DNA of 64,000 nt from a virus. Under the pieces are notes generated by a model. That model had not been told where the DNA came from. It made no database searches and saw nothing but the letters and a program-made list of their open reading frames with translations. Position numbers and translations under genes: made by a program. Shown here in pieces: positions 20,031-63,448 of this stretch. The DNA lies in IMG/VR virus record IMGVR_UViG_3300045988_176357, positions 64,001 to 128,000 of that record; one strand, written 5' to 3'. The first letter of the stretch is position 1. Each line of letters opens with the position of its first letter.

Positions 20031-20212
20031 CACTCTCTATGTGAGATAGATAATCCCAACAAAAAGGTAATATACCCATGAGTATGCTTAACAAGAAAGC
20101 CGCTTTTCTCCACGATCTGCTTGTTCAGTCCGGAGCGCTGCACAAAGTTGCAGGCGGCGAATAGATTACAGAGAAGAAGCTCGATGCTCCGCAGCCCACT
20201 ATCGGCGACAAG

Positions 20213-21333
20213 ATGCAGAATGAAACCGAAGAGGCTACGAATGGCAACTATGCTTCCGATCCCAGTGTGAACGCCGAGGTCAAAGGCACTGTCGAAATGG
20301 TAGAGAACAAGATCGAAGGCGACGATGACAAGAAGGCTGAAAAAGACCTTGCAGAGACCGGTACTGATGTGAAAGACGTATGTCCTGCAGGTATGCCTAC
20401 AGGAACTCCTGCTCAGGTTGCAAAGTCTGCAGCTCTCAAGCAGAAGCTCACGGCCTGCATCAATGCCCAGATCGAAAAAGAAGCCGCTATGAAGAAAGCA
20501 GCTGAAGAAGCTGAGCTTGCCAAACAGGCTGCAGCTAAGCAGGCTGAGAGCAATGAAGTGATGACAGCTACCGAAGTTCTTAACAAGGTTGCATCTTTCA
20601 CTGAGGACAAAACAGCTGAAGAACTTGCAGCGCTTACTGACGACATCGAAGTCAGCTTCAAGAAACTCGCTGCTACCAATCCGCTGTTCAATGTTGCCTG
20701 CGAACAGGCTCTGATTCGCAAGATGGCAGCTGAGGTTGAAGCTCTTTCAGCATCTGAAGGCATTCCTCCGGAAGAAGCGGCTGCGGCGCTCGATGCTGCT
20801 GTCGCTGAAGATCCTGAAGCGATGAGTGAACTTACTAACGAGGCTGAAGGTGAGGCTCTGTCTGATCTTGCAGCTGCGGAACAGGACTCTGCTGCTCTTA
20901 TGGACGGACTCGACCAGACCGCTGCACAGCTCTCTGAAGCTCTTGGTGAACCCGTTACAAGTGACGATATTCTCGCGGCTGTCGATGAAGTCACTGCTCA
21001 GGCCGAACAGCTTGGAGTTCCTCCGGAAGCTCTCGTTCAGGCTGCTGCAGCTGAGATGGCTCAGGGAGCTTAGATCTCTCCTGAAGATGCAGCTGCTGCT
21101 GAACAGCTTGTCAGTGATGCTGCTGCTCAGGGTGTTTCTCCCGAAGAGCTTGTCGAAGGCATTGCTCAGGCTGAAGCTGGTGCTGCCCCTGTCGAAGGTG
21201 CGCCTGCGGAGGCTCCTGCAGCTGAACCTGCACCCACTGAAGAGTAGCTCGCAAAAGAAGCTTGCCTCAGAAAGCTCGCATCTACGAAGCGCGGCGCCAA
21301 TCTCATGAAGATTCTTACTGCCAGCGGCAAGTA
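20213..21333 (+). CDS. Ala/Glu-rich acidic coiled-coil protein, putative scaffolding or head decoration protein
   Basis: 286-aa track ORF extended through 2 TAGs to TAA 21331-21333. Composition AELAKQAAAKQAES...AAEVEALSASEGIPPEEAAAALDAAVAEDPEA. Sits upstream of the capsid candidate. Confidence 0.45.
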
Positions 21334-21345
21334 AGGAGCGCACAA

Positions 21346-21750
21346 TGTCACAGGACTTCCAGAAGATCGCTGAAGAAGCGATTAAACAGTGCGCAGAATA
21401 TGAAGCTCGCATTAACCAGCTCCAGGAACAGATTGCTCTCACCAAGAAGGCAAATCTGGCCGATCCTGAGCTGGTTAAGAAGTCCGTGGAAGCTCTCACT
21501 AAAACAGGAGGTATCACGGCATAGCAGGCAGACGAGACAGCTCAGTTGCTTGCCCACGACCCAAATGCCTCCTTAAGAGCTATTCAGGCTCTGTGCGACC
21601 GCTACACTGACGCAGCTCCCATTGTGAAAAAAGAATCCGATATATAGGGCGGCAGGCTTGTTGATACATTCAATAAGCAGGCATCGGCGGCTCCTGTTGA
21701 AGACGCATACGCTGCAGTTGCCCGTGTCCTCGGACTAAAGATGAATAAAT
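21346..21750 (+). CDS. Small hypothetical protein (about 135 aa)
   Basis: Frame 1 ATG after scaffold stop, 2 TAGs; end approximate. Confidence 0.35.
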
Positions 21751-21763
21751 AAAGGAAACTATT

Positions 21764-22348
21764 ATGGCTATTACAAGGTCTGTTAAACAGCAGTACGAGT
21801 ACTACGTTGCTGTTAAGAGCGGCGTTCTTGATGAGACCAACTGTCTCATGCACACGGCTGTGCTGAATGAGAATGCCGATAAGGTTGTTCGCGGCTCTGT
21901 TATCTCTCTGAATGCTGCGGGCGAATTCGTGCTTGGGCTTACTGAAGGTTCCGGCAATCTGTATCCGATGCCCTGCTTCGCGAAGAAGAATGCGTTTGAT
22001 CCGGATGTCATGACCGGCGCTGTCGGCAGTGCTACCGGCGAAGTTATCGCCAGTTCTACTGTCGGTAAGAAGATGTCCGCCTATGTTGCTACGGGTGCAT
22101 TTGAAATCGAATCCTCTGAGTTCGATAAGGATGCTACGTATGCGATCAATGCTGCACTTGTCTGTGCTGATGGCGACAAGCTTGGAAAGGTCACTCCCGG
22201 TGGTGCGAACGCTGTGTACGGAGCGAAGACTGTCGTCGGTATCGTCAGTGCGCTTCCGTTCCGCTCCAAAGCCAGCCTGAACGTGAACGGCACTGCTGTT
22301 AACCGCATCTGCTTCTGGTCGGTCTTCTTCCCGCCGAAGCGTGGTTAA
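21764..22348 (+). CDS. Hypothetical structural protein (194 aa, TAG-free), possible head decoration
   Basis: Clean ORF with TAA stop inside the capsid module. Confidence 0.4.
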   Translation: MAITRSVKQQYEYYVAVKSGVLDETNCLMHTAVLNENADKVVRGSVISLNAAGEFVLGLTEGSGNLYPMPCFAKKNAFDPDVMTGAVGSATGEVIASSTVGKKMSAYVATGAFEIESSEFDKDATYAINAALVCADGDKLGKVTPGGANAVYGAKTVVGIVSALPFRSKASLNVNGTAVNRICFWSVFFPPKRG

Positions 22349-22404
22349 TCCGCTGTAAGATAAACCAGGGGAGCGTGTCTCCCCGATAACTATAGGAACG
22401 CAAT

Positions 22405-23418
22405 ATGTACACTTCCGATCAGATTGCTGCCATCAATCAGGAGTTTAAAGACAAGCTCCTCAGCGATGACTCCGCTATGGTGAAACAGGCGGGACTCGCA
22501 GGCACCACATATTTCCGTACGCGCATTCGCTAGAATGCCGTATACCGCAAGCTTCTTCCTCCGGTCTCCGTTACGGCTGACAACTTCGATGTGAATGAAG
22601 CCTCCGACCTTCCCAGCATGATTGTCGAGCTCGACATCAACTCCGAAGGTGCAATGCAGGTTCCGTTTGAAACGGCTACCACCGGCGCAACCTTCAACGG
22701 ACGCAAGGCGAGATGTGAATTCGGGCGCATCATGACGCCGAAGTACGAGATCGACAAAATCCGTCTTACCGGATACAAGATGCCGATCCTTGACATCCTG
22801 TACGACCTCATGCTCAAAGACATCATGGATGTCGAAGACGAAGCGTGGGCGGCTGTCAACCAGGAAATCGTCGGCAATGCTGATAACCAGACCGATCAGA
22901 TCGCTGAATTCGGTCTCCGCCGCGCTATCCGCCAGACCTGGGATCGTGAAGGCGTTGCCGGTCTCGGTGCTGCGGCTGCCGGATTGCTCCGCACGAAGGG
23001 CAAATTGAAACCGTCCAAAGGACTCATGAACGAACTTCTGTACATCAGAATGGCTGAGTGGGATCGAAATACCGTTGGCGGCGATATGGCTCAGGACATG
23101 CTGTTCGATGGTGTCACGACCGGCAAGCTGAACAAGCTCGATGTCCTCGTCACCTCCAAGGATACTGTCTGCTCCGAATACGATCTGTGGGTGTTCACTG
23201 ATCCGCAGTTCTATGGTGCGAACTACACGTACCAGGATGTCAGCATGGTTACGGACGAAAAGGATGGAATCTTCCTGAACTTCTTCGCCTATGAGACCAT
23301 CGGCGGTATCGTTGTGAACAGAGCCGGTGTCTGCAAGGTCACGTACGATGCGAAGAACATCAACGAGTGCACCTTCTGGACTGATCCGGTTGATGCTTCC
23401 GACGCCATCGGTGGCTGA
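22405..23418 (+). CDS. Putative major capsid protein (337 aa)
   Basis: Size and position (after the scaffold-like gene, followed by a strong terminator); only 1 in-frame TAG. No motif-level proof. Confidence 0.35.
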
Positions 23419-23442
23419 TTGAAATCAGGTTGCTGATTATAA

Positions 23443-23472
23443 AAGCCCTCCGTAACAGGAGGGCTTTTTTTA
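23443..23472 (+). terminator. Rho-independent terminator
   Basis: AAAAGCCCTCC-GTAACA-GGAGGGCTTTTTTT downstream of the capsid candidate. Confidence 0.7.
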
Positions 23473-23520
23473 TGTCCTTAATGTGGTAAACTGTAAGAAA
23501 CCAACAAGAAAGGAAGTATT

Positions 23521-24309
23521 ATGTCAGTAACTATTCAGACCGTCATCACCAACAAGAGTCGCGGAGTTCGTTCCCTTATTGTTTCCAGATCAAAGACGTA
23601 CAGTCTCAGAGCAGGAGAGACAGTAGTTCTCGATTACGATATCTGGTCGTACCTCACACCTACAGTAAAACGGAAACTTGAACTGGATGTGCAGATGGGA
23701 AGACTCGAGATCACAACAAGGCTGTTCACAGACAATGCCAACATCTCTGTCGACCCTGATGGAACATATAAGATTGCCAACGGCGGACTTGAGGTCGCCA
23801 AGCCCAAAGAGCAGGTGAAAGAAAATAAGCTCCCGGCAGCCAAGGCTGACAAGGCCACCACCAACGGAAAACTGTTTGACAACAGTGGTACGGTTATGGC
23901 TGACAAGAGCTCGTCTGTCATGCAGAAAGCCATCGGAGCCAAGCGTGTTGAGGCTGGTAATACAGATCAGACAGAACAGCCTGCACAGGACAAAACAGGA
24001 TTCACTAAAACCGACATGAGCTCCTCGGGTCTTATGCATACTATGAACAATCTCGAACCTGCACATTCATCCAGCGTGTTCAAAGCCACCTCGACAGATA
24101 CAACCAAAGCAGAGGAAGAAGCCAAAACAGAAACAGAGAAAGAACTGTCACGTCCTGAATACATCGACGAACTGTATGCAGCTAAAGATTACACAGCCAT
24201 CGCAGGAGCGCTGACAGAGTGGTATCCTGGAACAACGTTCACAAAGGCTTCTATCAAGAAATGCAACAGCTATGCTGAACTCAAAGAAAAGTACCCTGTG
24301 CTTGCGTAA
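23521..24309 (+). CDS. Hypothetical protein (262 aa, TAG-free)
   Basis: Clean ORF, TAA stop. Confidence 0.45.
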   Translation: MSVTIQTVITNKSRGVRSLIVSRSKTYSLRAGETVVLDYDIWSYLTPTVKRKLELDVQMGRLEITTRLFTDNANISVDPDGTYKIANGGLEVAKPKEQVKENKLPAAKADKATTNGKLFDNSGTVMADKSSSVMQKAIGAKRVEAGNTDQTEQPAQDKTGFTKTDMSSSGLMHTMNNLEPAHSSSVFKATSTDTTKAEEEAKTETEKELSRPEYIDELYAAKDYTAIAGALTEWYPGTTFTKASIKKCNSYAELKEKYPVLA

Positions 24310-26596: not shown

Positions 26597-26713
26597 TGGC
26601 GCTCCCACTGAGATTCGAACTCAAGATCTGGCGGATTTCATTGATAATCGAGGACTTACAACAATCCTGATATCTCTGGACTATATCATCTTCTCCGTTT
26701 CCAGAGAAGGAGC
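26597..26713 (-). ncRNA. Aberrant 117-nt tRNA-like element: canonical T-arm (TTGAG-TTCGAAT-CTCAG), acceptor 3' strand, discriminator and encoded CCA, but non-canonical 5' half
   Basis: Reverse complement ends ...CAGATCTTGAGTTCGAATCTCAGTGGGAGCGCCA; candidate 5' acceptor strand GCTCCTT lies 117 nt upstream; no standard D/anticodon arms could be fitted and no CTA anticodon is present. Confidence 0.35.
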
Positions 26714-26931
26714 GCTTCGGACTTTCGTCCTACTCCCTTGCGGGATAGTCTCTGAACCCTTTCCGGGCTCCATAGCTTTCGCCTTAGGAGATCCCTTGAT
26801 CGGCTGCTGATTGCCTTCGGCGTTACCCGTTAAGGTGTCCCAGCAATTCACTTTCTTGTTCGACACACCTCGCGGTGTGAAGCTCCAAACAGAGTCCGCT
26901 GTTCTGCCATTAAACTATGGGAGCATAATAT

Positions 26932-27007
26932 TGGTTGCGGGGACAGGATTCGAACCTGCATATCCAAGCTTATGAGGCTTGTCGGCAACCGTTGCCACCA
27001 CCCCGCC
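26932..27007 (-). tRNA. tRNA-Met (anticodon CAU), 76 nt with encoded CCA
   Basis: Reverse complement GGCGGGGTGGTGGCAACGGTTGCCGACAAGCCTCATAAGCTTGGATATGCAGGTTCGAATCCTGTCCCCGCAACCA: anticodon stem CAAGC/GCTTG, loop CTCATAA, T-loop TTCGAAT, acceptor 6 bp plus a G1:A72 mismatch. Confidence 0.7.
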
Positions 27008-41080: not shown

Positions 41081-41913
41081 ATGCCGGGTATATTTGAACA
41101 AATTAAAGGTCTGAATACTTCTTCTCAGAATATTGCGCCTAAACCTGTAAAGCAGCCGCAAGAAGATATCGTACAGACCATAGCCGATTGGCAGAAGAAG
41201 AGCACGCCTGAAACCACCAAACAGATATTGGACTTCATCAGGCCGACTATCGACAGTGCGCTTCATACCTATACACCTGGACAATAGAACACATTCAGAA
41301 TAAAAGCTACATCCTATGCCTTGCAGAGTCTGCGTAACTACGATGTGACAAAGAAAGTGTCTCCAAAGACCTTCGTGTTTTCAAACCTTCAAAGACTCAA
41401 CAGACTCAGAAGGTAGCGTTAGAATATCATTCATATCCCTTAGAATCAGGTCTATATGAAACAGATGCTGGACAATAAAACAGCTTAGCTGTAGAGTGAC
41501 CTGGGAAGACCGCCTACTGATTAGTAGCTGAGCTAGGCTCTGTATATCTCCAAGCGCAAACTGGATAAGCTGCGTTAGCAGTCCTCTGTTACCATAAGTT
41601 AGACAATGTCTCAAGATCCGTAGGGACACTAGATGCTTGGAGCGTCTGATGTCACGGACAGGGATTACTATAATTATGTCTACTCATCTGTATCTCCTGT
41701 AGATAAAAAGATAATGTAGTGGACATCCGGGTACAAAACAAAGCCGCTGTCCAATAATCAGATAGCTGAGAAACTGCATATATCACCTGGGGCTGTATCA
41801 CAGAGAAAGAACAGGATACAGCAGCTCATGGGTTAGGTCAGAGGTCTCGTATGAGAAAACTTATACAGGAAGGCGGAGAAAAGCCAACCGGCTGCTCATT
41901 GCAGCAGCACGAT
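41081..41913 (+). CDS. Sigma-70 family sigma factor, TAG-rich (late?) copy
   Basis: Frame 2 checked. Region 4.2-like HTH LSNNQIAEKLHISPGAVSQRKNRI preceded by VTDRDYYNYVYSSVSPVDKKIM; region-2-like N-terminal segment; 23 TAGs; TAA stop. Confidence 0.6.
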
Positions 41914-41930
41914 AAGTTTATCAGGTATGC

Positions 41931-42254
41931 GATGAACCTCCGTTTAGAATCTCTATAGGATATAGTGGACGGCAGTCAGCAATACCGGGCAACTTAGGCA
42001 CAGAAACCTGCATAGGCATAGCTGTACCTGACAAACCTGGATTAGATTCTGCAGCCTCAGTTCTTGTCCCATCTGCAGAGTAATAAGGATCAGTCTGCAC
42101 AGGTATCTACATTTTAGCAGTACGGCTAGATATTCCGTATAAGCAGAGACTTACTGACTTGCACTTAGAAAAGAAAATCGAGACTGCTTGCCGGTGTCCA
42201 GGAAACGCTTGGAAAAGCATGGGCTAACAGTACAGCTGGAGATGTGTACTTATG
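41931..42254 (+). CDS. Small hypothetical protein
   Basis: Frame 0, TGA stop; read by eye only. Confidence 0.25.
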
Positions 42255-45200
42255 AAGGATATGCAGTTCACGTAGCCTAAAACAATGCTTATATAGCCAC
42301 ATGTGCTTGGAGTAACTTCTGTACAGGGGCTTATTCTGTATCAGAAAATACTTGTGCTTATGCTCAGCTCGTCTTCCTCCAGCTACAGAGAAAATGCCGG
42401 AACACAATTGATAGACTTGTTATCTGGCTCGAATACGCCATCTGACTAGCTTCTTACATCTCTCGGTTCCAACGCATGTGCACAGGCGAGATCTCTGCTG
42501 GACTCATAGGATATTGACAAAATGGACTCACTTACAGCATCTGCAAGTAATGGAGTCTTAAGTATAACCCTGCGGCTCAAAGACGGCTAGACATATACTG
42601 GAGAACTGTCGTGAATTTAACAGAACCAACAAATACTCAATTTCAGCAGGCCTAGTAGACACTGACCAATTTGATGCAGGACTACTCTCAGCAGCTTGAT
42701 GTAAAGAAAGCATCTACCATACGGTAGCTGTTGATAAGACCCTATGCATATGTATTCGCAAAGATAAATCAACTGATGTAGACATGGTTAAGAACTACGT
42801 CTGTAGGTTACCTGTCCTAGTCACAGCTTACACAGAACCAGACTGCGGATATAGTTGCAAGTAATTACTTTGTCACAAGAAAGCAGGGCACATACGCAAA
42901 AGGTGTTGTGACTCTTACCTGTACTGCCTCTTCTGTTCGAGTGACTAAAGGCGCGCAGTTTACTATAGACGGACATATCTTTGTTACTTAGAAGACAACT
43001 ATAGCCTCTGTGAATCCTCTATAGGATACTGAAGACATCAATTACACAAAAATGTACAGCATTAATGGCCAGTACAAGACCAATGTTCCTGTTGTTTCTG
43101 TTGTATCCGGCTACATGGAGATACCGGAAGGGGCTCTGGTCACAGTATCATCGTACATAGCCAATGTCAACCAGGCGTAGCTTACATCTCCGATAACAGG
43201 TGGAGCTTAGAGCTAGACAGACGCATCTATGATGAGCAGATGTAAGGACAGGTGCGGATCTGCTATAGGAACATTAGGAGCTCTACGGATAAAGATGTAG
43301 GAAGCTCCTGTACAGGTTATGAGCTGCAACGCAATAAGCAGCAAAGATCCTGGATGCTTCAGAGCCAGAAACAACAACCTCGATGTGCCTTATGGCGGCA
43401 TAGTTGATGTCTATGTGAAAACGGCAAATCAGACATCATTCGGTAAGCTTCTGTTCTAGTCTATGAAACATGACAGTGATGGCTACTATATATAGGTGTC
43501 CGCAGAAGATGACAGATAGATTGCCGGTTTCACACGCGTAACAAAGGTAATTTCTGCCCGGCAAGGCACATAGATCGGCACATACACTGTATAGTATGGT
43601 TCATCCAACACACTTGTATCTGCGTAGGCAGCAAGACTTACTGTATATCAGACAGCTAAGATACGCTTCCGCCAGTCCCTCGCAGCTTCGGTTCCGGTAT
43701 AGGTGACTGTGTAGTATGTAAACGGCATTACAGACCTGCAGTAGTATATGGACAGTTCTTCAGGCGCCTTCCTTGGACAGGATTGCCTTGTGAAAGCTGC
43801 TGTACCTGCAACAGTACATATATCCGGCTACATACACAGCACACAGCCGATAACATAGGATACCTTATAGTCACTTAAGGTTTTCATATCTCAATATGTG
43901 AACAGCAAACAAGTCGGTGACTATATATTGAATATGGCTTAGGTTGGCTAGGCTCTGCACCAGCAGTATCCTGACATCAATTTAAGACTTCCATATGGTA
44001 TTCAGACAAGCTTGCCGATGACTAATGGTGGCAACTATAACTTTACCACTTCTGACGGCTAGATCGACCTGACATACAGACAAGGTTTGTATATGTGGGA
44101 TCCTCAAGCATATTACTTCTCAACAGTGCCAGCATATATCACACTTGAGGTACTGTAATGTAGAAATGGGCTAAACTTGTTCGCAGAATATGCGGATATT
44201 TCTGGACTACGGTATGGAAAGATACATGGCTGATCTAGCTGCTTGGCAAGTTCTTTCAGCACGTGTCTGGATAGGTGCTGTAGGATAGGCTGCTGCAAAT
44301 AGACAATCAGTTGCATGTTGCATATACGGTGCAGCCTGATAAGTGGCACCCTGTGCGTATACTGGTTGATGCTTAGACATAGAGCAGCGCTGTAATACCT
44401 ATAACACAGTTCGTAATTGGATCATCTTCCATAGGGCAAACTGTGTAGGGCACTAAGTACAGTACTTTGTAGCAGCTTGGTATCCCGATAAAGATACAGA
44501 ATAAGGTGGACACACCTGATATCCTGCTCAATATCGATACCGACTATACTGTGCAGGACGGATGTATTAAGTTCAACCAGCCGTTGGATCAGATCGGATT
44601 CCGATCTACTGTAGTCACTGTAGCCGGTTAGATAAAAGTCTGTTACTAGCTGTGGGGCATCTACTAGAAGTATCAGACACTGAGGGATGCTTTTACCGGT
44701 ATCCTGTAGGTTCCGAATTATTGGTTGTATAAGTATCCGGGAGCTGTGGAGGCGGCCTGGAGCATAAAGCTTAACGGCAGCAACAAGCGAGATGTTCTGC
44801 GGTTACTTGGAGCTGTCGGACAATGTCCTGTAGCTTGGCAGTAGGGCACTGTATCAGATGTACAAGGCAGCACAGTCATTATAGGTGACCACACATATAC
44901 CGGTGAAGGTTCTCCGATAGTTACTAAAGGTCAGTATGTGCTGAAGGGTTAGCCTTTATTTGTCGCAGCTGAAAACGCACTTGACTATCCGAGAGTGATA
45001 ACATGGAAAGATACCATTCCATCTGATATCGCGAGCATACCTGTTGTTACAGATGCCGGAGTGCTTACAGCTTCAAACAGAGACGGACTGAGTCCTGTAA
45101 ACAATGTACTGCCGCTAACAGGTTAGAACTACATACAGTATCAAAGACTGTGTGCATAGTTAAATGCTGATCTGAATATACCGTATATACAGCTTCCAGC

Positions 45201-51370: not shown

Positions 51371-53522
51371 TAAACTGTACAATATATCTGCTGTATATCC
51401 ATTCTATAACCATACTGGATTGTCTGATACAGACAGACAGACAGCCGGATGTATAGCTTGCTGCAGAATATAGATACGAAAACCGAGACTCAGGCAATTT
51501 TTAGCAGGCTAGGATTACTACAAACCTATTCAGGATACAAATATTCCGACGCAGATAGTTCTTGAAAGAACAGAACCGGGCAAGGCTGTATTTAAAGTGC
51601 AATACGGTTACTATGAGTAGCCGTGGTACATAACATGGACAAGGGATGGGACTTGCTCAGGCACTTTTCTTGTTTCATGCTATATGTAGCTGACAGCTTA
51701 GCTGCCTACATATACAGGCAGCTCTTTAATTCTCCTTAATTAGTGCATGATAATCAGAACGCCTGGAGTAGTGCTGCATGCCGCATCGGATGGAATCCAA
51801 TAGACAGGCGGGATATATCCTAACCAGACCATGTATACGAATGTCAAAGGTTTCTGTGACGGATATAACTGTCAGGTAAGTGCATAGGATTCCAATTTGA
51901 TTATACTGTCGTCGGCTGCAGCAGGTAAAGGGAGACCTAAATACAATGATGTGTGGGGTTCAGACTCACAGGAGTCTTAGTTACCAGCGGAAGCTCCGAC
52001 AGGTGTGCGCACTATAAACACAAGCACGGGAAGCGTAACTTTTCTATCTATAGGCGATGTAACGCAGAACGTTGTTGTTACTTAGTAGGATGACGAAGTT
52101 ACAACTACAGTACAATTAAGTATCTGAGCTTATATGAAACACCTTAAGAAAGACAGATGCGGATGGAAAGAGTATTAGTGTGTAGGCATTAAAGACCTGT
52201 TCTCCGACTCTATATCCATATGCTGTGACACGACAAATTATGATTAGACTGGCGGGTAGAGATAGAACGACTATAACTACCTGAATCTGCCTGTATCTTT
52301 TTAGGGTGTAGTCAACATAGTTCCATTTGCCAACCTGTAGTCACTTGGAGGTGGCGTCGGATGTATATCCAGCTACGATCCGATGGGGGACGGCTTGCAG
52401 GACTGGTTTGACAAAGTCAGTAAAAATTCTGACTACATAGCGGCATATGGTAACTTCAGAGCTTCTCTGGCTTGCTATTTTGATTCTTAGAAGTAGCGTC
52501 CGGGGATAATGACACCGAAAGCTACGCTGAGTCCGTTTAACACAGCACCTTCAGTAGTTGTCCCGACGTCTTAGCTGCGTGTATAGCCTAACGTGGGCGG
52601 CGGAGGTACAAGTTCGTGGGATGGACAGAGTGCCTGCGCTAACGGGTTCGCTATAATACCGCTGGATCACAAGGGCTCTGGATATAGACTGTATGTAAGT
52701 TCAGGCGATGCTATACCTTCTGTAAATGCAAACGGATAGGCTGTATCCTATTACGTAGAAGGAAGATATCCGGAGGGATAGGGTGCTAGATATAAGTCTG
52801 ATCTGTAGGTATACCTGACAGCCAAATATGACTTTACCACCGCAAAATGGGACTTCGGAATTGCGGTCGTGCAGCAGGATCAGGATTGGTAGACTGCTGT
52901 GGACAGATAGTAGTGGGAAAAGGTGACTCTGCTGGGCACTGTAAGTTGTGTCCGGAATGGTAACGCGAAGGTATAGACATACGTAACGCAGACAGCTTGC
53001 TCTCCTGTCGATATGCGCGACTTTGTTTCTTAGGTTCCTATGCCGTCAGGTACTGATACATCAATGTATGTATTCGCTTATCTTGGCAGCAGCAAGATAA
53101 AGAAATGGGTACAGGTAAAGGACTGTTGACTTACATGTAACTTCAGCTAGGCTTAATGAAACTAACTGAAGGAATATAACATGCCAAACTGTCCATGTCC
53201 GTAGTTCGACATTTAGAAGTACAAAGATAAGCCTTACTAGGAAACTCCTTGTGCCAAGTGTTTCCTGTCAAAGTAGACTACCAACACACATAAACACTCA
53301 TAGCTGTTCGACACAGACGGTGTGTAGTCTCAGCAACCTGTCAAACGTCCGTAGCCTGTGTAGATATAGGATATCCTTCCTGAAAAAATTTCTCCTGACA
53401 CGTTGGCTATAATCGTATAGGCGTGTCAGCAGAACTTTATTCTTACACTCAGCAATCTGGTGCTCAAACTTACACGTCTGTCCAAGACATATCCTGTACT
53501 GTTTTAGATTCTCACATACAAG

Positions 53523-53892
53523 ATGCAGCATCCATAGATGTCTTACTTCGAGATAGGCAGGAAGCTTAATCCGCCGTGCTCAAAGCAGAACGTGCTGTAT
53601 CACCTGTCGCACGCTGTCAGATAGTTCCCTCAACTGGAGAAGAGCATTGTTACAGATACAAGGTTCTCAGGAGGAAGATACGCACTGAAGACCATAGCAT
53701 AGCTGGCATCCAGGATCAAGCAGGTGTAGATCGTGCGGCGTAAATTATACGAGCAGAACTAGTACAACACACGTAAAGAGTTCGACGAACTGAAGAGATA
53801 GCTGTAGAGACCATATAAGGTTAACATCATCAGCGAGTTCGACAGCTATCTTCATGAATCCGACAGCGGAGACGACAATGTTAAGAGCAGAT
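53523..53892 (+). CDS. Hypothetical protein (about 123 aa)
   Basis: Frame 0, TGA stop. Confidence 0.3.
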
Positions 53893-54981
53893 GAATAGGT
53901 ATTCAAACTTAATGATTCAAGAGTTAAGGCACTGTCAACAGGTAAGCTGACTGTAGCTGCACTTGCATATACTATCAAACCTGGAGACTACATGATACTG
54001 TACAAGAATACAGTATATGCACTGACAGAAGACTAGTACTATGCCGCTCAACAGATGGACATGTAGAAGTATCTGACAAAAGAAGCATTCTAGCAGGTAC
54101 TCAAATAGGATATAGACAAGCTCGATACAGTAGACAGGAAAGCCGCATAGAGAATCAAGAACAGCAAGACCAATTGTTCCACCTGCCAGTACAACTCGTA
54201 CAAGACTCAGCTGCTCAGAATCATGCAGAAGTATCCATGGCTGCTCAGCAAGTACAATCTTGTGAAGATAAAGCGCCAGATACGGCAATACCCATAGGTA
54301 TCGTAGCCTGTTATATCGAAGGTAAGCGCTCTGTTCCCTACGTTCTTCCAGAAAGTTGAATACGACAGGAAACCGTGTCTTGACTGCGTGTAGAAGCACA
54401 TAGGCATGGCGTACATAAAAGGATGCTAGGCGCAACAGGGCTATCCTGAGCATCTTGTACTTGCAGTAGCTAATTTGCAGGAAGCATATGAGGAATGCCC
54501 TAAGGACTGCTCCGCTATAAGAGAGATGCTGCTGTTCTGCATAGGCAAGACAAAGATCGAGAACAAAGCGTTTATTCCGCTGGATAATCTCCTGTATCTT
54601 ATATAGATAGCCAGACAGGAAACAAGCATGTCGTAGGCTCTGGATAAGAATAAAGCGGATTAGTCGTTCGACCTGTAGCTCGATTAGCAGATGAAGCAGG
54701 AACTTGCAGAGATTCCTGTGCTTAAGAAGCTGGATATAATGAACGAACTTAAGGCGCTCATTGCACTTGAGTACAGCAACAAAGACCACATATCTGTCAA
54801 GTATCAGGGATACATGGGCAGTCTTGCAGACATGATATTGCCGTTTTCTGTGAAGGTAAGTAATCTGATCAGGAACAGGCGCCTTATGTTCAAGGCGTGT
54901 CCGTAGTTAGTGCGTCAGACTGAGTATGATTGCAAAGATTTACAGGAAGCGTTGAAGAGTCCGATGGCGAAAAAGGACTGA
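53878..54981 (+). CDS. Cys-rich hypothetical protein (about 367 aa)
   Basis: Frame 1 checked line by line 53794-54981; motifs CSTCQY, KPCLDCVQKH, ECPKDCSAIREML. Confidence 0.4.
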
Positions 54982-55815
54982 TCTACTACAGAATATCAAA
55001 TTCCATGCCGTAGATGCACATTGTTCCGCTGTTGCTTGTATCGGACTGTGATTCAGAGCTCTAACTGTAGCTTATGCTGTAGCTGGAGCTCTGTGACTAT
55101 GAACCTGACAATGACTGCGAATATGACACAGAGTCGGAGCACGCTGTTCCTGTTGTAAACTAAAAGGCAGTGGCCTGTGCAGAGTTCAGATAGTTCAGAG
55201 CTTTAACAAGCGCTGTTACACCTGTCTTTATTCCGTTTATAGCATGCTGAGCCTGGAAGTCGTTACGAACTCTGAGCTTTATACTGTCTGTGCGGAAATA
55301 CGCGTAATCATCCATAATCTCGGACGGATAATCCTACATATCCACAGGATCTGCAATATGACTGAATCTGTAGTCAGGCTACTTATTGAAGTTCTTCGGC
55401 AGCTTCTATATTACAAAAACATTTGTATCTACGTTACAGGCGGAGGTTGCTTTGCATTCAATATCAACAGCCGCCTTATATCCTGATCGCTGATATCTTT
55501 TGACACTGAAGTGCAGAGTTATGTTCATTGCTGCTCCGTAAATGTGACGCCGCCAATTGTAATTGGCAATTTGAAATTCTATTTAAGAAAAGCATTAAAG
55601 GCTTTATTATATTGTAAGCGCAAAGCAGCTGCTTTCAGTATAGTATGCTTATTTACCTGTTTATGCGGGCACGTTGGACAGCCCTTGATAGCGGCTGACG
55701 CAGCTGCCATAAGAGGGAAGGACTTTAAGTCCATATTGAGTAATTTTTGCTAATCAGGTGTTAAAAACATTTTGCGCTCCTTATGAGCTGGGCGCGTTCA
55801 ACTGGAAAGAATAGA

Positions 55816-56712
55816 ATGGGAACATTGAGTAAAGACTGTTACGCGTATCCTGCCAAGGAACTCTATCCTATACACACCAAATAGGCTGCGCTTAATTCTT
55901 ACAAAGAGTTCTAGCACGATATTGATAAGTATTCAATTGACAGCATCAAGATGATTGCAGCCAATTTCATAAAAGCTGCGTCTGTACACGACATCAAATA
56001 TCCTTGTGCACAGGCTGCGAAATCCAGACAGTGTGTAGACATATAGCTGGATAACGGCGCTGTAGTGTCTATGACCAAAATATAGAACTTGCAAGATGCG
56101 GATAAAGCTGTAGCCATGCTGGATCAGATCAGAGACAACATTGAGCTTAAATCTCTCAGAAAGGTTGCGAGGTATATTGTCAATGAATGTGAGAAACTCA
56201 GCCTGTATCCTACTGACAGCATAAAGCTTCATAAGTACGCTGGTTTTGGTCTTGGCAATGCCTAGTAGATGGCTGCATAGTTCCGCAAGCGCGGTACGCT
56301 CATACTGTTGCCTGAAAGCATCAAATCATAGTTCTATCAGGCATATAGAAACCTTGATCAGCAGGATGCATAGACCATGTACAAGCAATCTGCAGCTATT
56401 TGCGATATGCTTGATGGTATCGACAGACTGTATAAGCTCGAATCTCATTACGGTAACGAAATCAGTAAACCGTAGGATGTGTGCTTTTCGTAGACACTCG
56501 ATACTATGATCAAGTAGGCTTCTGACTATCTCGGAGTCGAGTCGACATCTACCATTCTATCCAAAAAGGCTCTACTACAGGACAAATAGAAAGTAGCCAA
56601 ATTCTTTGCTGATAAATACGGCGCGTAGATAAAAGATGACAATGATATGCTGAATAAGGTAGCGACACTGTCTTCAACCGGAATAAAAGCACTCATAAAG
56701 GAACTTGAATGA
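55816..56712 (+). CDS. Hypothetical protein (298 aa)
   Basis: Frame 1 checked line by line, 23 TAGs, TGA stop. Confidence 0.5.
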
Positions 56713-57359
56713 ACCTATTCTAGCGCAAAGACTGTATGGTTCCTGTATATGCTCTTGCTGCTGTATCCAAGTTTCAGTAGTAGGCTGTAAACTGGGACCC
56801 TCTGGTACTGCGCGACGCATTTTAGGCTCAGTTCAACTGCAAACTGTCACAGCGCGGTTTTGACAAGCTGATGGCAGGTACGTCCATGATAGGTACAAAC
56901 CTGTTCACAGCATCCATATAGAGCTTTTTAGCCTGTACTGCAGCTTGTGCCAACAGAAGCATACAGTCATCACAGCTGAACTATGTATCTCTGAAAGAAT
57001 GCTGTTGGTCTGTATTCGTGTACAAAGATATGATCGGATACAACCAGCAGGAACAGCAAGATCAGTTCGATCCGGATATAGTGATGTATATACAGGGCCT
57101 TATGGATATATAGGGTATATCCAAACTACCTTCATACATGTCCTTTGTCTAGCTGCCGACGTAGAGGATGGCGACTATATAGCAGGCTCTGGTAGGTGAC
57201 GTCACATCGTTCTAGGCCTACAACACAAGGCAGCTGAACTAGATGCAGGATATAAATGCCTACGTGATGCAGATGCAGGCAGATCTTGTATAGCAGCTGA
57301 AGCTGTTGGATCCTATTATACACTGAATTATTCTCAAAGGGAAAAGTGTGTATTTTCCT

Positions 57360-58450
57360 TTGAAAATAGCTAAAAAATGACCACTTTTTTGGCATAATAA
57401 TATGGAGAAGCTTTTAGAGCTTTTCTATGGATGGACTTATCCATCCGGTTTCACGGTGCTGTATTGAGGTCGACTTATGTTGACTGTCAATACAGCACCA
57501 TTCGAATTTGTGACTATTGTTTTCTGTTACCCTGCTTAAATTTTTACTTAGTAGTCGTATATGCATCAGCTACTGTTGCTCGCTGGTAAATTACAACCTA
57601 AGTAAGTTTAGCTACGATGTGAACAAGAAGCTGCTACGGCTTCGATTTGTAGAAGGACCGCCGCGTGTCCGTTACTGATTTCCACTGGAAATTTCATAAG
57701 CGATCTGCCTCTCGTGGTTACGAAGGCCAGATCGCACCTGAAATTACCAAAGAAAATACAAGACATCGTTATCTGAGCATGCAGTTGTTACAACTGCTGT
57801 AAACACATACTAATGGTGGTATGTGATCATATTTCCTGGTACTAGGTATTATGTACCAGGAAATCGATAGATATACAGGTGAACAGTTCGACAAGCAGTC
57901 GGCTGGATATGTCACACTATTTTATTTATGCGGATTCTGTTGCTCTTGTGTCTTGGTTCATTTTAATATTCAATAGACTTCGTATCAGTTACTGATACAC
58001 TTAGAGACCATGTGAGACACATATGTGTGTCTATTACCCTCAGCATACCTCCAGAGTGATACTCTGGAGGTTAACTTTAGGGTAATAAAAGTATTGAATA
58101 TGTTGCCAACAGATGACTAGTACGTGAAATAGAAGTCGTTGCGACTTCGCATCGGATTTGATAAATACCTTATCAAACAAATGAACGGCTGAGAGGCGAC
58201 CCGCCAGGCCCAATTGAGGCACTTGGCTACAGCCAAGTGACCACAAGTGGGCATCGGCGTACGCCTCCCGCCTATCGTTGAGACGTTAAAGCCTGAATCT
58301 ACAATCGTTACGATTGCTTGTATGCTGGCTAGGACAGTATATATGTTATAATTGGAAGGATCATGCTATTATTGATCCTTCCAATTTTAGAGGCGATGAC
58401 TAGTTTATTTATTTGGTAAAACAGATGCACACTAACACGTTACGTGTTAT
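57360..58450. other. Noncoding region of about 1.1 kb, dense in stable hairpins and inverted repeats
   Basis: No long frame free of TAA/TGA. Hairpins include GGATGGACTTATCCATCC, GGTGCTGTATTGA...TCAATACAGCACC (13 bp), TTTCCTGGTAC...GTACCAGGAAA (11 bp), CCTCCAGAG-TGATA-CTCTGGAGG nested in TTACCCT/AGGGTAA, AATTGGAAGGATCA-TGCTATTAT-TGATCCTTCCAATT (14 bp). Confidence 0.5.
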
Positions 58451-59118
58451 TTTACAGCATACAATGGACAACGTTGTATCGCGGTATGTTCTTACTTATG
58501 AAGCCTGCGGCGAGCGCAAAACTCTGCTGTCTATCGACGCAGACTTCAGCGCACCGACGCAGCTTCAGAACTAAGAACAGATCAGATCTGTAAATAAAGC
58601 TGAACTCGAGTCCGTTACGGATTCACAAATGTGTATTACTCAATGCGTGATACACAACAATCCTGGTGCTGCATGGAGCACCTCCGAACAGCACCAGGAT
58701 TCAGAGCTTATACCCCAACACAGCTAAAGCTTTCTCAAGCTAAGCTATAAACTTGGCATCAGGAACAACAGAATTCGCAAACCCTCCAAGCCCGTCCCAC
58801 TGTCCTGCAAGACGCTGTTTAACAGCCTATCTTATCCGCACACCAAGATCCTACAGAACCAGTTTGATCTATTGGCTCTGCACATGGAAGCCTTTCTGCT
58901 CCCATCTGACCCAAATCGGGTACCACCTTGCAAACCGCTTGCATGCGGTAGGCAGAGGATATATAGTATCCCTTCTTCCCTATTTGCCGCGCAACACAAC
59001 GTTGCCGTTTATTGACTAGAGTCTTCTGACCTAGTCAAAAGTGAACTTAGCGTGACTCATAGACTAGTACTGCGTTGCTTCTTTTTTTAGCCTATAGTCA
59101 TTGTTACTGTCAAGTTTA

Positions 59119-60936
59119 ATAACTTTCATATACATCCTCCTATGGGTCTATTACAACAGGGTGACTGGAGACGGCCTGCACGAACTGACTGAACTAGGAT
59201 CTTGGACTGAAGTTCTGATACTAAGCGGCCAGCACAGAAGTGTCGAACTTCTAGCCCAGCACAGGAAATATTCCGAACTTATGCCATAAGGCTGAGCAGG
59301 CAAAGTTGACGGCATGTGCAAAGTCATCAGGCACACCTGGTTTCTTGCCTATGAAGACAACTGTCCTGTTGCCTATATACGCTCTTGGATCCTACTTAAG
59401 CGCAAGAAAGTCATAGGCAAGCTAAGTCTTATCCTATACATTGAACTTCATTATACGTACAGACGTATCTTTCAGCGCCTGCACAATAAGAGCAAGACTT
59501 CTGGACTTGTCTATTGTATAGTTATAATAGTCAGCCTGCTGCTGAGCTTTGTCGTAGCTTATGATGTCGCCTTTCTTAGGTCCGGTATATGTGAACGGAA
59601 CAGGATACGTGCTTGTGAGCAGCAATCCTCGCTGCTTCATGATCTACATGCGCACAAAACCCGCACCACCGTTATCGTGTGCAAATATATCAGGATGCAG
59701 GATATCTATCCATTGCATCAGCTACTAGGCCTGCTATGTCGGCGTCGTTCCTTTAGGGTATCTCTTGCCGAACAATATATCTATGCGGTCTGTATCCGTT
59801 CGCAACCCTGCTACACACGCAGTTGTGAACGACTATGATACAGCGCCCCCTCCGTCCCAGTCTACACCTATGACTATGCATCTGTACATGTGCCTGATAC
59901 CGAGTATATCCTGTACTGAAGCGATGTTGTAGTCATGTTGGGCTGCAACAAGATCACGCAATGTCAGAGGATTGACTGACTAGTCATACGGCCAGCCGAA
60001 AACTTCATTGTACACACGCAGCTTGGAATAACTGTCGACTTTAGCCAGAAGGTCGTACCATTTTCTAGGTTCATTGGTAGCCTAGTCGATCGTAAGATGC
60101 AGCGGATGTATCGGCTGCCCTATATGGTAGCCTGGGAAAGTGAACTGTCTCTAAGGTACGGCATGTACGAAGCCTCCGTTATGTGGAAACACAGTGCGCC
60201 CACACCTGGAACACACAAGGCCGTTCTTTCCGAGCATTCCAAGAAGATCGTGCTATGGATTGGGTATATTGAAATGGTTGCAGTGTGTGCATCTTATTAT
60301 CCACTATGCCTGCGATGACTTATCCCACAGGATACCGCAAGTAGTATCTGTCGTAGTCGGAGTACCCGCATACATGGAATACCCGTGCCGCAGGTTGGCC
60401 GACATAACCTCACGTATGACAGGCACGAAACTGAAATCCACGTCGGCAAGCTCGTCTATGACTATCTGTGAGCATCCGGACAGGCCTCGCAGAGCATCTG
60501 CGTTGGCGTAAGCGGTGCCCAGATACATGAACGAGCCGACATTGAACTGCTTCAGCAGAGTTTTGCTGAGCTATACTTTTTTGATAAGAGATCCGCATAT
60601 CGGACTGGACTCAAGCAGAGGTTTCAGAATGGTAGTGTGATATCGTGTCCTCTGTTCATCTCTTGGTTCGATATGAAGTATATCATAAAACGGTATCAGA
60701 CTGGAACGCAGTACAGACGACTAGGCTATCTGATAGGTCTTACCGACCTGTCGTCCAGTCATCCATACCTGCTATCTAGGATATATAGTGTTGAACATGG
60801 GTGCGAACTGATAGTGCAGATCCAATGTCAGAGGTTTCCCCTTAAGAGAGAAGATACTCAACAGTGGAATGAACGTCCTCAGTTTGTCCTAGGCGATAGC
60901 ATTCAAACACGATTTAACAGCATCAATTAAAGTCAT
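59119..60936 (-). CDS. terL: Large terminase subunit (605 aa), TAG-recoded on the minus strand
   Basis: Reverse-strand frame free of TAA/TGA with 16 CTA (antisense TAG). Walker A MTGRQVGKTY (T4 gp17-type RQxGKT); Walker B QIVIDELADV; nuclease motif CIVIGVDWDGGGA; stop TAA (rc of 59116-59118). Confidence 0.75.
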
Positions 60937-60972
60937 AGTAATTCAAGCATAAAACAGAAAGGAAAAACGAAA

Positions 60973-61335
60973 ATGAAAAGCAAACGGACACCGGAACCAG
61001 ACGCAGAACTCGTAACAGCAATCAAGTGTGCGCCAGACAATGGGGCTTGCGTTACCAAAGTCATCAGCGTACACAAGGCTGCAGCCAATCTGAGCTCGAG
61101 AGCTGCCGCACGTAAAGCTGTACTGGATATAGTTAAAAGCCTGAAACTGAACCATGCCAAAGTCCAGCTGGATTCGGCTGCTTATTTCGATGAAGATATT
61201 TTCAGAGTCCGAATCTGGAAAGAGAAAGCAACAGCAGATGCATGGGATAAGACTGTAATTTACTGGCTCGAGACGATGCCTCTTATAAAGCCGGTCAGGA
61301 ACAAGCTTGCCAAACTGGGATTCAACCTGGACTGA
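60973..61335 (+). CDS. Hypothetical early protein (120 aa)
   Basis: TAG-free ORF, TGA stop; divergent from terminase. Confidence 0.5.
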   Translation: MKSKRTPEPDAELVTAIKCAPDNGACVTKVISVHKAAANLSSRAAARKAVLDIVKSLKLNHAKVQLDSAAYFDEDIFRVRIWKEKATADAWDKTVIYWLETMPLIKPVRNKLAKLGFNLD

Positions 61336-61366
61336 GCTTTACTGTAACAAATGAAAGGAATAAAAG

Positions 61367-61627
61367 ATGAAAAGAAACAATTATGTATTCGCAGTACTGA
61401 GCTCAGGTATATTCCACACGTATATCGAAGCTGCATTTGATAGTGAGCTGTTGGCAATTGCGTACATGCAGAAACGTCTTGATGCTGTGCGGGCAAAGCA
61501 CAAACGAGGATATGGTGGCAGATGGCGTACTGAACCTGACGGGTCGAGAACTGTCATGCTCAGGATGTGTAATCAGCCACACATCCAGCTGAATCTGCAG
61601 AAACTCACCATACAAACCCACCTGTAA
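61367..61627 (+). CDS. Small protein, paralog of 61664..61960
   Basis: Shares AYMQKRLDAVRAKHKRGYGGRWRT with AYMQHRIDMYKRKHRRGWGGKWNT in the next gene. Confidence 0.5.
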   Translation: MKRNNYVFAVLSSGIFHTYIEAAFDSELLAIAYMQKRLDAVRAKHKRGYGGRWRTEPDGSRTVMLRMCNQPHIQLNLQKLTIQTHL

Positions 61628-61663
61628 CCAACACATATACGAAATAACTGAAAGGAAAGACCC

Positions 61664-61960
61664 ATGGCAAAAAATAAGAAATGCGCATACATTGTACTGA
61701 GAGATGACAGATTTTATGACTGCCTGTCAGGAGTCGAAGCTTTGTTCGACACAGCAGAAGCAGCTAAAGCCTACATGCAGCATCGTATCGACATGTACAA
61801 AAGGAAACACAGGCGAGGATGGGGCGGCAAATGGAACACTAAGGCGCCGATGAATGAAGAATGCGAAGCCGAAATACGTGCAGGTGACGGCTATTGGTAC
61901 ACACTGTATGTAGAGAAATTTATCATACACACAAAAGAAGATATAAAGGAGCTTGAATGA
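61664..61960 (+). CDS. Small protein, paralog of 61367..61627
   Basis: See the paralog entry; TGA stop. Confidence 0.5.
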   Translation: MAKNKKCAYIVLRDDRFYDCLSGVEALFDTAEAAKAYMQHRIDMYKRKHRRGWGGKWNTKAPMNEECEAEIRAGDGYWYTLYVEKFIIHTKEDIKELE

Positions 61961-62364
61961 TCGTTATCAGTCGTCTTTATGTCTCCGGACTTCCTTTAGA
62001 TAAACTCGAGCAACTGGCAGATGAAATCAGCCACAAAGACTTCACAGACGGCTGTGTCTTCGCATGCTCTGTCCACAAGGATGCTGCTAGGATGTACATA
62101 GACACCTTTGAAGGCGTCGCTACCGACCAGATGGACGATGATCTCAACGAGATTGGCAGACTCGCGCTGAATTATGGTTGCCGCATTGCAGGCAAAATCT
62201 TCCAATTTGGTGAATTTGCAGTATGGTCCGGAAACTTCAATGATGTGAATGAGATCGAATGGGTTGACATGACTCTGTTCATGGAACTGCCCACACACGA
62301 GCTCAGAAAACTTGCAACATATGTAGGTGCCGACAATGTCGTACAAGCTCAACACAAATGTTAA
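61957..62364 (+). CDS. Hypothetical early protein (135 aa)
   Basis: ATGA overlap with upstream stop; TAA stop. Confidence 0.45.
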   Translation: MIVISRLYVSGLPLDKLEQLADEISHKDFTDGCVFACSVHKDAARMYIDTFEGVATDQMDDDLNEIGRLALNYGCRIAGKIFQFGEFAVWSGNFNDVNEIEWVDMTLFMELPTHELRKLATYVGADNVVQAQHKC

Positions 62365-63136: not shown

Positions 63137-63142
63137 GGCACT

Positions 63143-63448
63143 ATGAAAAACGTATACACAGTGTGTGTCAGCAAACCGGGCAAAAGTCTGATGCGTTCTG
63201 TCACATGTTCTACAGCGAGCCTTGCCAGCTATTACATGCTGTACATGGTCGAGCAATACAATAAGGAACACAAAGACGTGGCGATCAATGCTATGGAAGG
63301 TCCTGACGGCAATATCGACGAAGTGCGCATTGCGGATAAGGATGGCAAGCAGATAGCCTGGATCTTCATTGTTGAAGTTCCTGTACACGCAAAGAAATCG
63401 GATACAGCCAAACTCGGTATGGCTCCCATATTGAAGTGGCTGGAATAA
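63143..63448 (+). CDS. Hypothetical early protein (101 aa)
   Basis: TAG-free, TAA stop. Confidence 0.45.
   Translation: MKNVYTVCVSKPGKSLMRSVTCSTASLASYYMLYMVEQYNKEHKDVAINAMEGPDGNIDEVRIADKDGKQIAWIFIVEVPVHAKKSDTAKLGMAPILKWLE

Follow-up and report, generated by a model that had tools for sequence, protein, structure and literature searches.

In a 64,000-nucleotide stretch of viral DNA (positions 64,001 to 128,000 of IMG/VR record IMGVR_UViG_3300045988_176357; hereafter the window, whose coordinates are used throughout), which belongs to an uncultured human-gut phage that reads TAG as a sense codon, a gene of the tail and baseplate block, g40, encodes a divergent member of the sigma-70 family. 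The phage also encodes a second sigma factor, g71, which is free of TAG, and an RNA polymerase of its own. Our preferred reading, to which we assign a probability of roughly 0.58, is that the g40 protein is made late, is packaged with the phage polymerase and acts as its specificity subunit on the early genes of the next infection, with the TAG-free sigma factor then switching the programme. Two accompanying observations, a probable reassignment of TAG to glutamate and an amber-decoding tRNA gene predicted to be split by a group I intron, are more surprising than the finding of the sigma factor.

A first-pass annotation, made from the letters of the window, had placed a sigma factor with 23 TAGs at 41081..41913. 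The start of this reading frame, an ATG at 41081, is correct, but its end is not, since a TGA at 41852-41854 closes the frame; the translated gene contains 15 in-frame TAG codons, and even in all three frames across 41081..41913 there are only 18. Those 15 codons do imply, as had been proposed, that the full-length product can be made only where TAG is decoded. The gene has a GAGG ribosome-binding site, the TGA of the upstream gene g39 lies 8 nt before its ATG, and its own TGA overlaps the ATG of g41 (ATGA), so that g40 is both embedded in its operon and coupled to it. Compared with a strain that is 97.8% identical, g40 shows 12 synonymous differences and one non-synonymous difference, a pattern that indicates purifying selection. 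In the window as a whole, the total length of open reading frames (ORFs) with 100 codons or more is 55.6 kb under the standard code versus 126.9 kb when TAA and TGA are the only stops. The latter code yields a tight, mostly plus-strand array of genes, and long ORFs exist in the window only if TAG is a sense codon.

The evidence that g40 is a sigma factor comes from profiles and from structure prediction. PHROG 351, annotated as 'RNA polymerase sigma factor', matches residues 84-248 with E=3.4e-7. The Pfam models of single sigma regions all fall under their curated cut-offs: Sigma70_r3 (PF04539) reaches E=1.6e-4 and 22.2 bits against a cut-off of 25.3, Sigma70_r4 (PF04545) E=4e-3 and PF08281 E=0.02, and several helix-turn-helix (HTH) families of Pfam match residues 218-251. 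Sigma70_r2 (PF04542) gave no match on g40 even at E<=1, and is also absent from the precomputed domains of the 53 homologues found in the protein database, which extend down to 32% identity and about half of which have PF04539 recorded. Searches with the whole family are unambiguous. A profile of 28 family members has as its best match in the PDB the Staphylococcus aureus factor SigB (E=3e-10, SigB residues 8-192, regions 2-3), followed by SigA, RpoD, SigF, FliA and RpoS; these matches are centred on regions 2.4-3, and the alignments to SigF (1l0o) and FliA (1rp3) reach residues 250-253. An AlphaFold model was built from the family alignment, the modelled sequence being P0001, a homologue 95% identical to g40. 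The model has a mean confidence (pLDDT) of 74 and consists of three helical domains with a disordered linker at residues 171-188. When the PDB was searched with this model using Foldseek, the top matches among the 50 listed were all sigma factors, with probability 1.0 and alignments of 219-257 columns; TM-scores were low because the arrangement of the domains is free. Finally, hhalign aligned g40 with g71 at 92.8% probability, as far as residue 236 of the former and 243 of the latter, which is into region 4. On these comparisons we regard g40 as a genuine sigma-70 family member, most like the group 3 sigma factors, so that the profile check suggested in the first pass gave a weak answer with single-region models and a clear one with the family profile and the fold.

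The bacterial group 3 alternative sigma factors SigB and SigF are the best sequence-profile and fold matches, and g40 shares with them the domain order sigma2-sigma3-sigma4 and a size of about 250 amino acids. In the model, helices at residues 26-39, 43-64, 73-85, 95-102 and 105-114 form a domain 2-like bundle, which Foldseek superposes on sigma factors. Region 3 contains the motif LGRPPTDxxLSxAL, where each x is a TAG codon; with TAG read as glutamate its core becomes PTDEELSEAL, corresponding to region 3.1. Region 4 is modelled as helices at 193-203, 206-216, 225-232 and 236-256, and the HTH that had been noted earlier, NNQIAEKLHISPGAVSQRKNRI, is indeed present at residues 225-246. Region 2 appears unusually divergent for a sigma factor. 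Unlike that of SigB and SigF, it is missed by Pfam, and direct reading of the sequence shows region 2.3 to be without the W-W pair and most of the aromatic residues conserved in those factors. A further difference is that g40 is encoded in a phage baseplate operon, where its likely partner is the phage polymerase.

The other two components of the proposed transcription apparatus are as the first pass had described them. In g71, regions 2, 3 and 4 all score over their Pfam cut-offs (5.8e-15, 1.3e-6 and 5.5e-9, respectively), PHROG 351 matches with E=5.5e-54, and no TAG occurs after the ATG. Phage-encoded beta and beta' subunits are present according to Pfam in two genes, g1 and g10. The fused gene g1 has the motif GADFDGD, at least three inteins and 46 TAGs, and g10 has one intein and 29 TAGs; the polymerase genes are near the capsid gene and adjoin a gene for an SLT lytic transglycosylase. 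The LAGLIDADG intein of g1 (residues 1311-1872) differs from the gene that hosts it, with 5.5% GAR (glutamate) codons and 0.5% TAG as opposed to 0.8-1.5% GAR and 2.8-4.2% TAG in the two main exteins. Since it is thus almost TAG-free and rich in GAR, its composition suggests a recent acquisition from a standard-code source. A 642-amino-acid gene of the structural region (18099..20027) is likewise interrupted by intein sequence. The stretch between the polymerase genes also contains, beside the SLT gene, a TAG-rich gene of 434 amino acids (6968..8272) with a LigD-type 3'-phosphoesterase domain (PF13298, E=2.4e-8).

Positions 52336..64000 of the window are 100% identical to a 192-kb human-gut contig from the ENA (ERZ28595212 scaffold_51), and relatives were found on contigs of 91-192 kb. 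Because the window and its extension exceed 100 kb and the circle is still not closed, the full genome probably exceeds that length by a good margin. Searches of 50,697 phage records, by megablast with 24 kb and by tblastn with g40, gave no match. A cultured relative was found through the polymerase: over its whole length, g1 is 29% identical to gp206 of Arash, a Salmonella myovirus of 180.8 kb (OQ632216.1). Arash gp10, annotated as 'RNA polymerase sigma factor', matches the g40 family profile (hhalign 99.2%, E=1.2e-19, 196 columns; tblastn 2e-10), with about 22% identity between the two proteins, and lies in a series gp8, gp9, gp10, gp11, gp12, gp13 that has the same order as the genes around g40. 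The second sigma factor, g71, corresponds to Arash gp196 (BLASTP E=5e-19), and further homologues are gp216 (the C-terminal part of beta'), gp226 (major capsid), gp1 (terminase), gp13 (wedge) and gp222 (structural protein).

The slot occupied by g40 is conserved beyond Arash. In relatives, the sigma gene follows a gene of 562-565 amino acids and precedes small genes and a wedge gene of 494-549 amino acids. This order is kept in a TAG-recoded relative with 32% GC, whose sigma factor is 55% identical, and in two standard-code relatives, whose sigma factors are 41% and 32% identical; the small genes number one or two in the first of these and two in the other relatives. All homologous genomes inspected that were long enough also carry the polymerase. 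As standard-code relatives keep the same sigma factor in the same baseplate slot, the architecture of two sigma factors plus polymerase, together with that slot, goes back to the ancestor of the clade and predates the recoding. Arash thus resembles the phage of the window in having a homologous sigma gene in the baseplate operon, a fused beta-beta' polymerase and a separate second sigma factor. It was compared as a standard-code reference, in contrast to the TAG-recoded phage of the window, in which inteins interrupt the polymerase genes and an intron splits the suppressor tRNA. For Arash Gp10 too, the role of a sigma factor is a predicted one, and its likeness to g40 is one of sequence and slot. 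Two groups of phages that have recoding, introns, inteins and a length of 145-192 kb in common with this one were considered as relatives and set aside: the paper on phAss-1-like recoded phages (PMC10607447) mentions neither polymerase nor sigma factor, and zeta crAss-like phages (PMC7886860, PMC12386605) have a crAss-type polymerase instead.

The time at which g40 acts is suggested by the proteins of Arash particles, as determined by liquid chromatography-mass spectrometry (PMC10585845). At 128 unique peptides and 3516 spectra, the beta subunit Gp206, product of the fused beta-beta' gene, was detected more than any other protein; the C-terminal beta' protein Gp216 was represented by 40 peptides and 1210 spectra, and Gp10, the homologue of g40, was covered to 100% by 24 peptides and 467 spectra. 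Gp196, the homologue of g71, is absent from the list, and the authors of that study consider that the polymerase is possibly active in early transcription (PMC10585845). Because Gp10 was found in virions with the polymerase and Gp196 was not listed, we favour an action of g40 at the start of the next infection over a late switch. Packaging would also be consistent with the conservation of the sigma slot within a virion operon, with the position of the polymerase genes near those for the capsid and the SLT enzyme, and with the TAG-rich coding that all polymerase parts have in common with the virion genes. We envisage that g40 would be synthesised late, alongside other TAG-rich virion proteins and the fused beta-beta' polymerase, and that it would be packaged with that polymerase and delivered with the DNA. 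There it would give the injected enzyme promoter specificity for the first, TAG-free genes, including g71 and possibly the gene for tRNA(CUA). The g71 protein, made early from a standard-code mRNA and not packaged, would then redirect transcription to the middle and late genes.

Promoter searches bear on this scheme in both directions. Sites resembling the sigma-70 consensus showed no enrichment (13 versus 17.9±3.9 in shuffles, and 6 versus 6.0), and we count their lack of enrichment around early genes in favour of the scheme. Among k-mers in 44 upstream regions, only CCAACAA stood out (5 occurrences versus 0.33 expected), and it was not significant after correction for all 7-mers. Copies of this heptamer are located about 10-45 nt before the window genes that start at 20078, 23521, 30395 and 42674, which head groups of virion genes, and a fifth copy precedes a gene outside the window. 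Two further sites beyond the window (L010, 13281-13326; L012, 11779-11824) share a conserved upstream element of some 46 nt (TTTGACGTTTTGATTTTC, 8 nt, GATGTATATTRTCTGTATAC). It ends 14 nt before two TAG-free genes, has only these two copies and is a candidate early promoter or leader. The motif discovery proposed in the first pass therefore did not yield a promoter class, whether from consensus sites, k-mers or the 46-nt element.

Several points weigh against our preferred reading. The argument for packaging is carried over from a relative whose protein has only about 22% identity to that of g40. The Arash preparation contained 116 proteins, including ribonucleotide reductase and kinases, and its authors allow for carry-over of abundant non-structural proteins (PMC10585845). 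A sigma factor that is made late could equally sustain late transcription, and no promoter class could be defined computationally. Lastly, with a region 2 that Pfam misses and that lacks the canonical aromatic melting residues, g40 may function differently from a textbook sigma factor.

The distribution of TAG bears on the alternative that the first pass had put forward. Nearly all virion and polymerase genes contain 3-7.6 TAGs per 100 codons, whereas almost none occur in the block at 60973..63448 or in the roughly 30 kb of replication genes to its right (taken from a 94-97% relative). The contrast in codon usage that had been noted between the two sigma factors is therefore real, but it is not special to them, since most virion and polymerase genes are TAG-rich. 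By the same token, recoding is not a switch specific to g40, because the polymerase subunits are TAG-rich as well. A third group, at 20078..24309, comprises a scaffold-like gene, the major capsid gene and their neighbours, with 0-0.7 TAGs per 100 codons; a possible reason is that the most strongly expressed genes are selected to avoid codons whose suppression is inefficient. As the major capsid gene is among these, TAG-poor does not simply mean early, and TAG-rich does not mean late.

According to this alternative, g40 is a late sigma factor that is translated once TAG decoding is on and directs the polymerase, of the phage or of the host, to late structural promoters, with recoding as the timer. 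Its premise about synthesis is sound, as production of g40 depends strictly on suppression. The gene lies inside the late virion block, the TAG-free sigma factor is available for an earlier phase, and the recoding of stop codons has been suggested to time late genes (Borges et al.). However, g40 sits inside the operon that it would have to switch on, where it is translationally coupled to baseplate genes. By contrast, the genes for known late sigma factors (T4 gp55, SPO1 gp33/34) lie in earlier transcription units. Moreover, the same gene is in the same slot in standard-code relatives, the polymerase is as TAG-rich as g40, and the major capsid gene is TAG-poor. The detection of the Arash homologue as a virion component makes a late time of action doubtful, and on balance we consider this explanation unlikely.

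A different possibility is that g40 partners the RNA polymerase of the host and, either after injection or after late synthesis, diverts or sequesters the host core. The closest solved relatives of g40 are, after all, bacterial alternative sigma factors, and most phage-encoded sigma factors act on the host core; in a comparative survey of jumbo phages, those with a sigma factor all lacked a polymerase of their own, and polymerase carriers such as phiKZ-like phages were reported to have no sigma factor (PMC7824862). On the other hand, the enzyme encoded here is a bacterial-type beta/beta' polymerase (Pfam E down to 8e-40) that could in principle bind a sigma factor, the phage polymerase is the most abundant match in the same Arash particles as Gp10, and a phage polymerase accompanies the sigma gene in every sufficiently long homologous genome that was inspected. 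We thus view a host partner as improbable. That g40 is not a transcription factor at all, but a structural protein of the baseplate or tail with an HTH, could be argued from its position in the operon, from the failure of any single Pfam sigma model to reach its cut-off and from the similar scores of generic HTH families and region 4, but is very improbable given profile and fold matches that extend over regions 2, 3 and 4, correctly ordered, and are to sigma factors only, and given PF04539 in about half of the homologues.

Whichever role g40 plays, the amino acid inserted at its TAG codons is quite likely to be glutamate, rather than glutamine, in this phage. In the tail module, glutamate codons (1.54%) and TAG (4.01%) add up to 5.56%, and glutamate makes up 5.58% and 5.65% of the orthologous modules of two standard-code relatives. 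The deficit in glutamate relative to these orthologues (-4.07%) matches the gain in TAG (+4.01%), and no other amino acid has such a deficit; glutamine codons (CAR) are not depleted, at 5.3% versus 3.7-4.1%. Across genes, TAG and GAR are anticorrelated (r=-0.54), and TAG-poor genes have 5-13% GAR. In alignments, TAG positions correspond to E 30, D 23 and Q 5 times in the two standard-code relatives and, of 102 positions compared with Arash, to E 21, D 15 and Q at most 4 times, while in standard-code references the counterparts of CAR codons are mostly Q and those of GAR codons E. Within g40 itself, TAG codons 121 and 149 are E in all five homologues that were treated as standard-code (two of them verified against DNA), and CAR codons 104, 241 and 247 are Q in four of the five. 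The catalytic glutamate of the SLT 'ES' motif in g3 is a TAG (codon 95, 6561..6563; AQTxSS, where x is the TAG, aligned to the NES motif of EtgA). We also count the contrast in GAR and TAG between the LAGLIDADG intein of g1 and its exteins as a line of evidence for glutamate.

Less informative are the codon differences from the 97.8% relative, which comprise five TAG/CAR and two TAG/GAG exchanges, numbers too small to discriminate between glutamine and glutamate. As for the literature, Borges et al. observed only reassignments of TAG to glutamine and of TGA to tryptophan, and full-text literature searches returned no report of UAG as glutamate in phages. The code-15 gut phages (crAss-like, Lak, Agate and other phages; Borges et al., Peters et al.) resemble this one in the concentration of TAG in virion genes, in a phage-encoded suppressor tRNA and in replication genes that use the standard code. 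Genetic code 15 is recognised by TAG at glutamine positions, with CAR partly replaced, and this pattern was not found here. Unlike in those phages, TAG tracks glutamate positions, and the gene for tRNA(CUA) contains a group I intron.

This tRNA gene is the only one found in the sequence examined whose product reads TAG. Default runs of ARAGORN and Rfam on the window reported only the adjacent tRNA-Met, and default ARAGORN on the roughly 36 kb that continue the window rightwards (from the 94-97% relative) reported no tRNA. The gene for tRNA(CUA) was missed by default ARAGORN because a 252-nt group I intron splits it, and was located via intron-like repeats of a relative that pointed back to 26.7 kb. 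Both tRNA genes are on the strand opposite to the virion genes. P1 of the intron shows CUCU/GGAG pairing, the 5' splice site is marked by a U.G pair and the last nucleotide is G; joining of the exons gives an anticodon loop CUCUAAA with anticodon CUA and a clean cloverleaf fold. A 97% relative (L017, 2636..2709, minus strand) contains an intron-less tRNA(cta) gene that is joined exactly at the predicted junction. The core fold, the splice site and the terminal G are thus those of a group I intron, and splicing is predicted; an intron in a tRNA anticodon loop is familiar from cyanobacterial tRNA-Leu(UAA). Five more group I introns were detected in the replication region of a 94-97% relative (L014, 1936-2222, 14288-14557, 14753-15061, 16023-16335 and 16946-17257; Rfam E 2.5e-9 to 3.8e-5). 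They apparently lie inside protein-coding sequence and share stretches of 62-92 nt, 98-100% identical, with the tRNA intron of the window.

The sequence of tRNA(CUA) does not by itself indicate which amino acid is carried, because its D-arm is ambiguous and its anticodon arm and acceptor stem disagree. The D-arm is identical to those of bacterial tRNA-Gln(CUG), tRNA-Gly(UCC) and tRNA-Trp(CCA). For the anticodon arm the best likeness is with tRNA-Gln, but the acceptor stem has G1-C72, unlike tRNA-Gln. GatCAB requires U1-A72. We speculate that a non-discriminating glutamyl-tRNA synthetase charges tRNA(CUA) and that G1-C72 lets the charged tRNA escape GatCAB.

The surroundings of g40 are, as the first pass had it, those of a tail and baseplate block. 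Genes of 832, 160 and 562 amino acids precede it in this order, and a baseplate wedge gene with a match to phrog_6 is downstream. PHROG scans of 20 neighbouring genes named only this wedge and the major capsid; g39 had no PHROG match, and the labels tape measure for g37, scaffold for g15 and sheath for g31 are based on size, position and composition only. The features discussed here are compiled in the table.

Table. Features of the window that are discussed in the text, with the basis of each assignment
Feature	Position	Strand	Basis
g40, divergent sigma-70 family factor, 257 amino acids	41081..41854	+	Translation, codon count, PHROG, profile and fold matches
g40, sigma domain 2-like helical bundle, residues 26-114	41156..41422	+	Profile alignment to SigB 8-192; predicted helices
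g40, sigma region 3, residues 121-172	41441..41596	+	Sigma70_r3, E=1.6e-4; PF04539 in many homologues
g40, sigma region 4, residues 193-256, with 4.2 HTH at 41753..41818	41657..41848	+	Sigma70_r4, E=4e-3; HTH families
g71, second sigma-70 family factor, 266 amino acids, regions 2-4, no TAG	62336..63136	+	Pfam, PHROG 351, BLASTP to Arash gp196
g1, fused RNA polymerase beta and N-terminal beta', cut at window start	1..5889	+	Rpb2_6 8e-40, Rpb1_2 4e-22, Rpb1_1, Intein_splicing, LAGLIDADG_3
g10, C-terminal part of beta'	11262..13319	+	Rpb1_5 3.6e-10, Hint; homologous to Arash gp216
tRNA(CUA), amber-decoding, interrupted after anticodon position 35	26597..26924	-	ARAGORN intron option: tRNA(cta) i(35,252)
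Group I intron, 252 nt, in anticodon loop of tRNA(CUA)	26639..26890	-	Rfam RF00028, E=1.1e-5, 31 bits, under gathering score of 50
tRNA-Met(CAT), immediately upstream of tRNA(CUA)	26932..27007	-	ARAGORN and Rfam
g3, SLT lytic transglycosylase	6279..6971	+	Pfam SLT, 25.6 bits versus cut-off of 21.3
Scaffold-like gene, rich in Glu and Ala	20078..21334		Composition and position only
Major capsid gene	22405..23418		phrog_2522
g37, tape-measure-sized, Q-rich, 832 amino acids	36393..38891		Size and position only
g39, tail/baseplate-region gene of hub size, 562 amino acids	39384..41072	+	Gene list; a 562-565-amino-acid gene precedes the sigma gene in all relatives
g41 (134 amino acids) and g42 (120 amino acids), small genes 3' of sigma gene	41851..42614	+	Same pair in relatives and Arash (gp11, gp12)
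g43, baseplate wedge (gpJ/gp6-like)	42674..44158	+	phrog_6, E=5.7e-23; homologous to Arash gp13 (virion protein)

Phage sigma factors and virion polymerases are each already known, and their combination in Arash has so far consisted of an annotation and an entry in a table. N4 is an established case of a virion polymerase. The same concept, of an enzyme that is made late, packaged and injected for host-independent early transcription, applies to phiKZ-like jumbo phages, crAss-like phages and P23-45 (PMC7598289, PMC10770324). In contrast to the polymerase of the window, which is much closer to bacterial beta/beta' and is accompanied by two sigma factors, the enzymes of these four lack a sigma-70 family subunit. 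With respect to the sigma factors, the closest parallel is with phage sigma cascades, such as SPO1 gp28 followed by gp33/34, T4 gp55 and phiEco32 gp36, in which successive phage sigma factors time classes of genes. SPO1, T4 and phiEco32 differ in using the host polymerase, having none of their own, and in having their sigma genes in earlier units outside a baseplate operon. Their sigma factors are not known as virion components.

Combining these results, we tentatively propose, at odds somewhat short of even, that this gut-phage lineage uses a UAG=glutamate code, implemented by a phage tRNA(CUA) from which, in the strain of the window, a self-splicing group I intron would first have to be removed, together with a polymerase-sigma holoenzyme delivered by the virion, in which g40 is the injected subunit and from which the TAG-free sigma factor switches to the recoded late programme. 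We found such a code described for no phage or bacterium. If TAG is glutamate, translation with code 15, as in the protein database that we searched, puts glutamine at about 4% of residues, catalytic ones included. Suppressor tRNA genes that are split by introns would help to explain why many recoded phages apparently lack a suppressor. The idea of recoding as a timer can also be read anew: among the products that depend on the new code is the transcription apparatus itself, which would therefore have to come from the previous generation. If our proposal is true, delivery of the holoenzyme sidesteps a bootstrap problem that arises from every polymerase subunit being written in the new code. 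A bacterial-type polymerase with two sigma-70 factors, one of them apparently packaged, would then be a solution different from those of known phages, and one that is testable in Arash, which is cultured on Salmonella.

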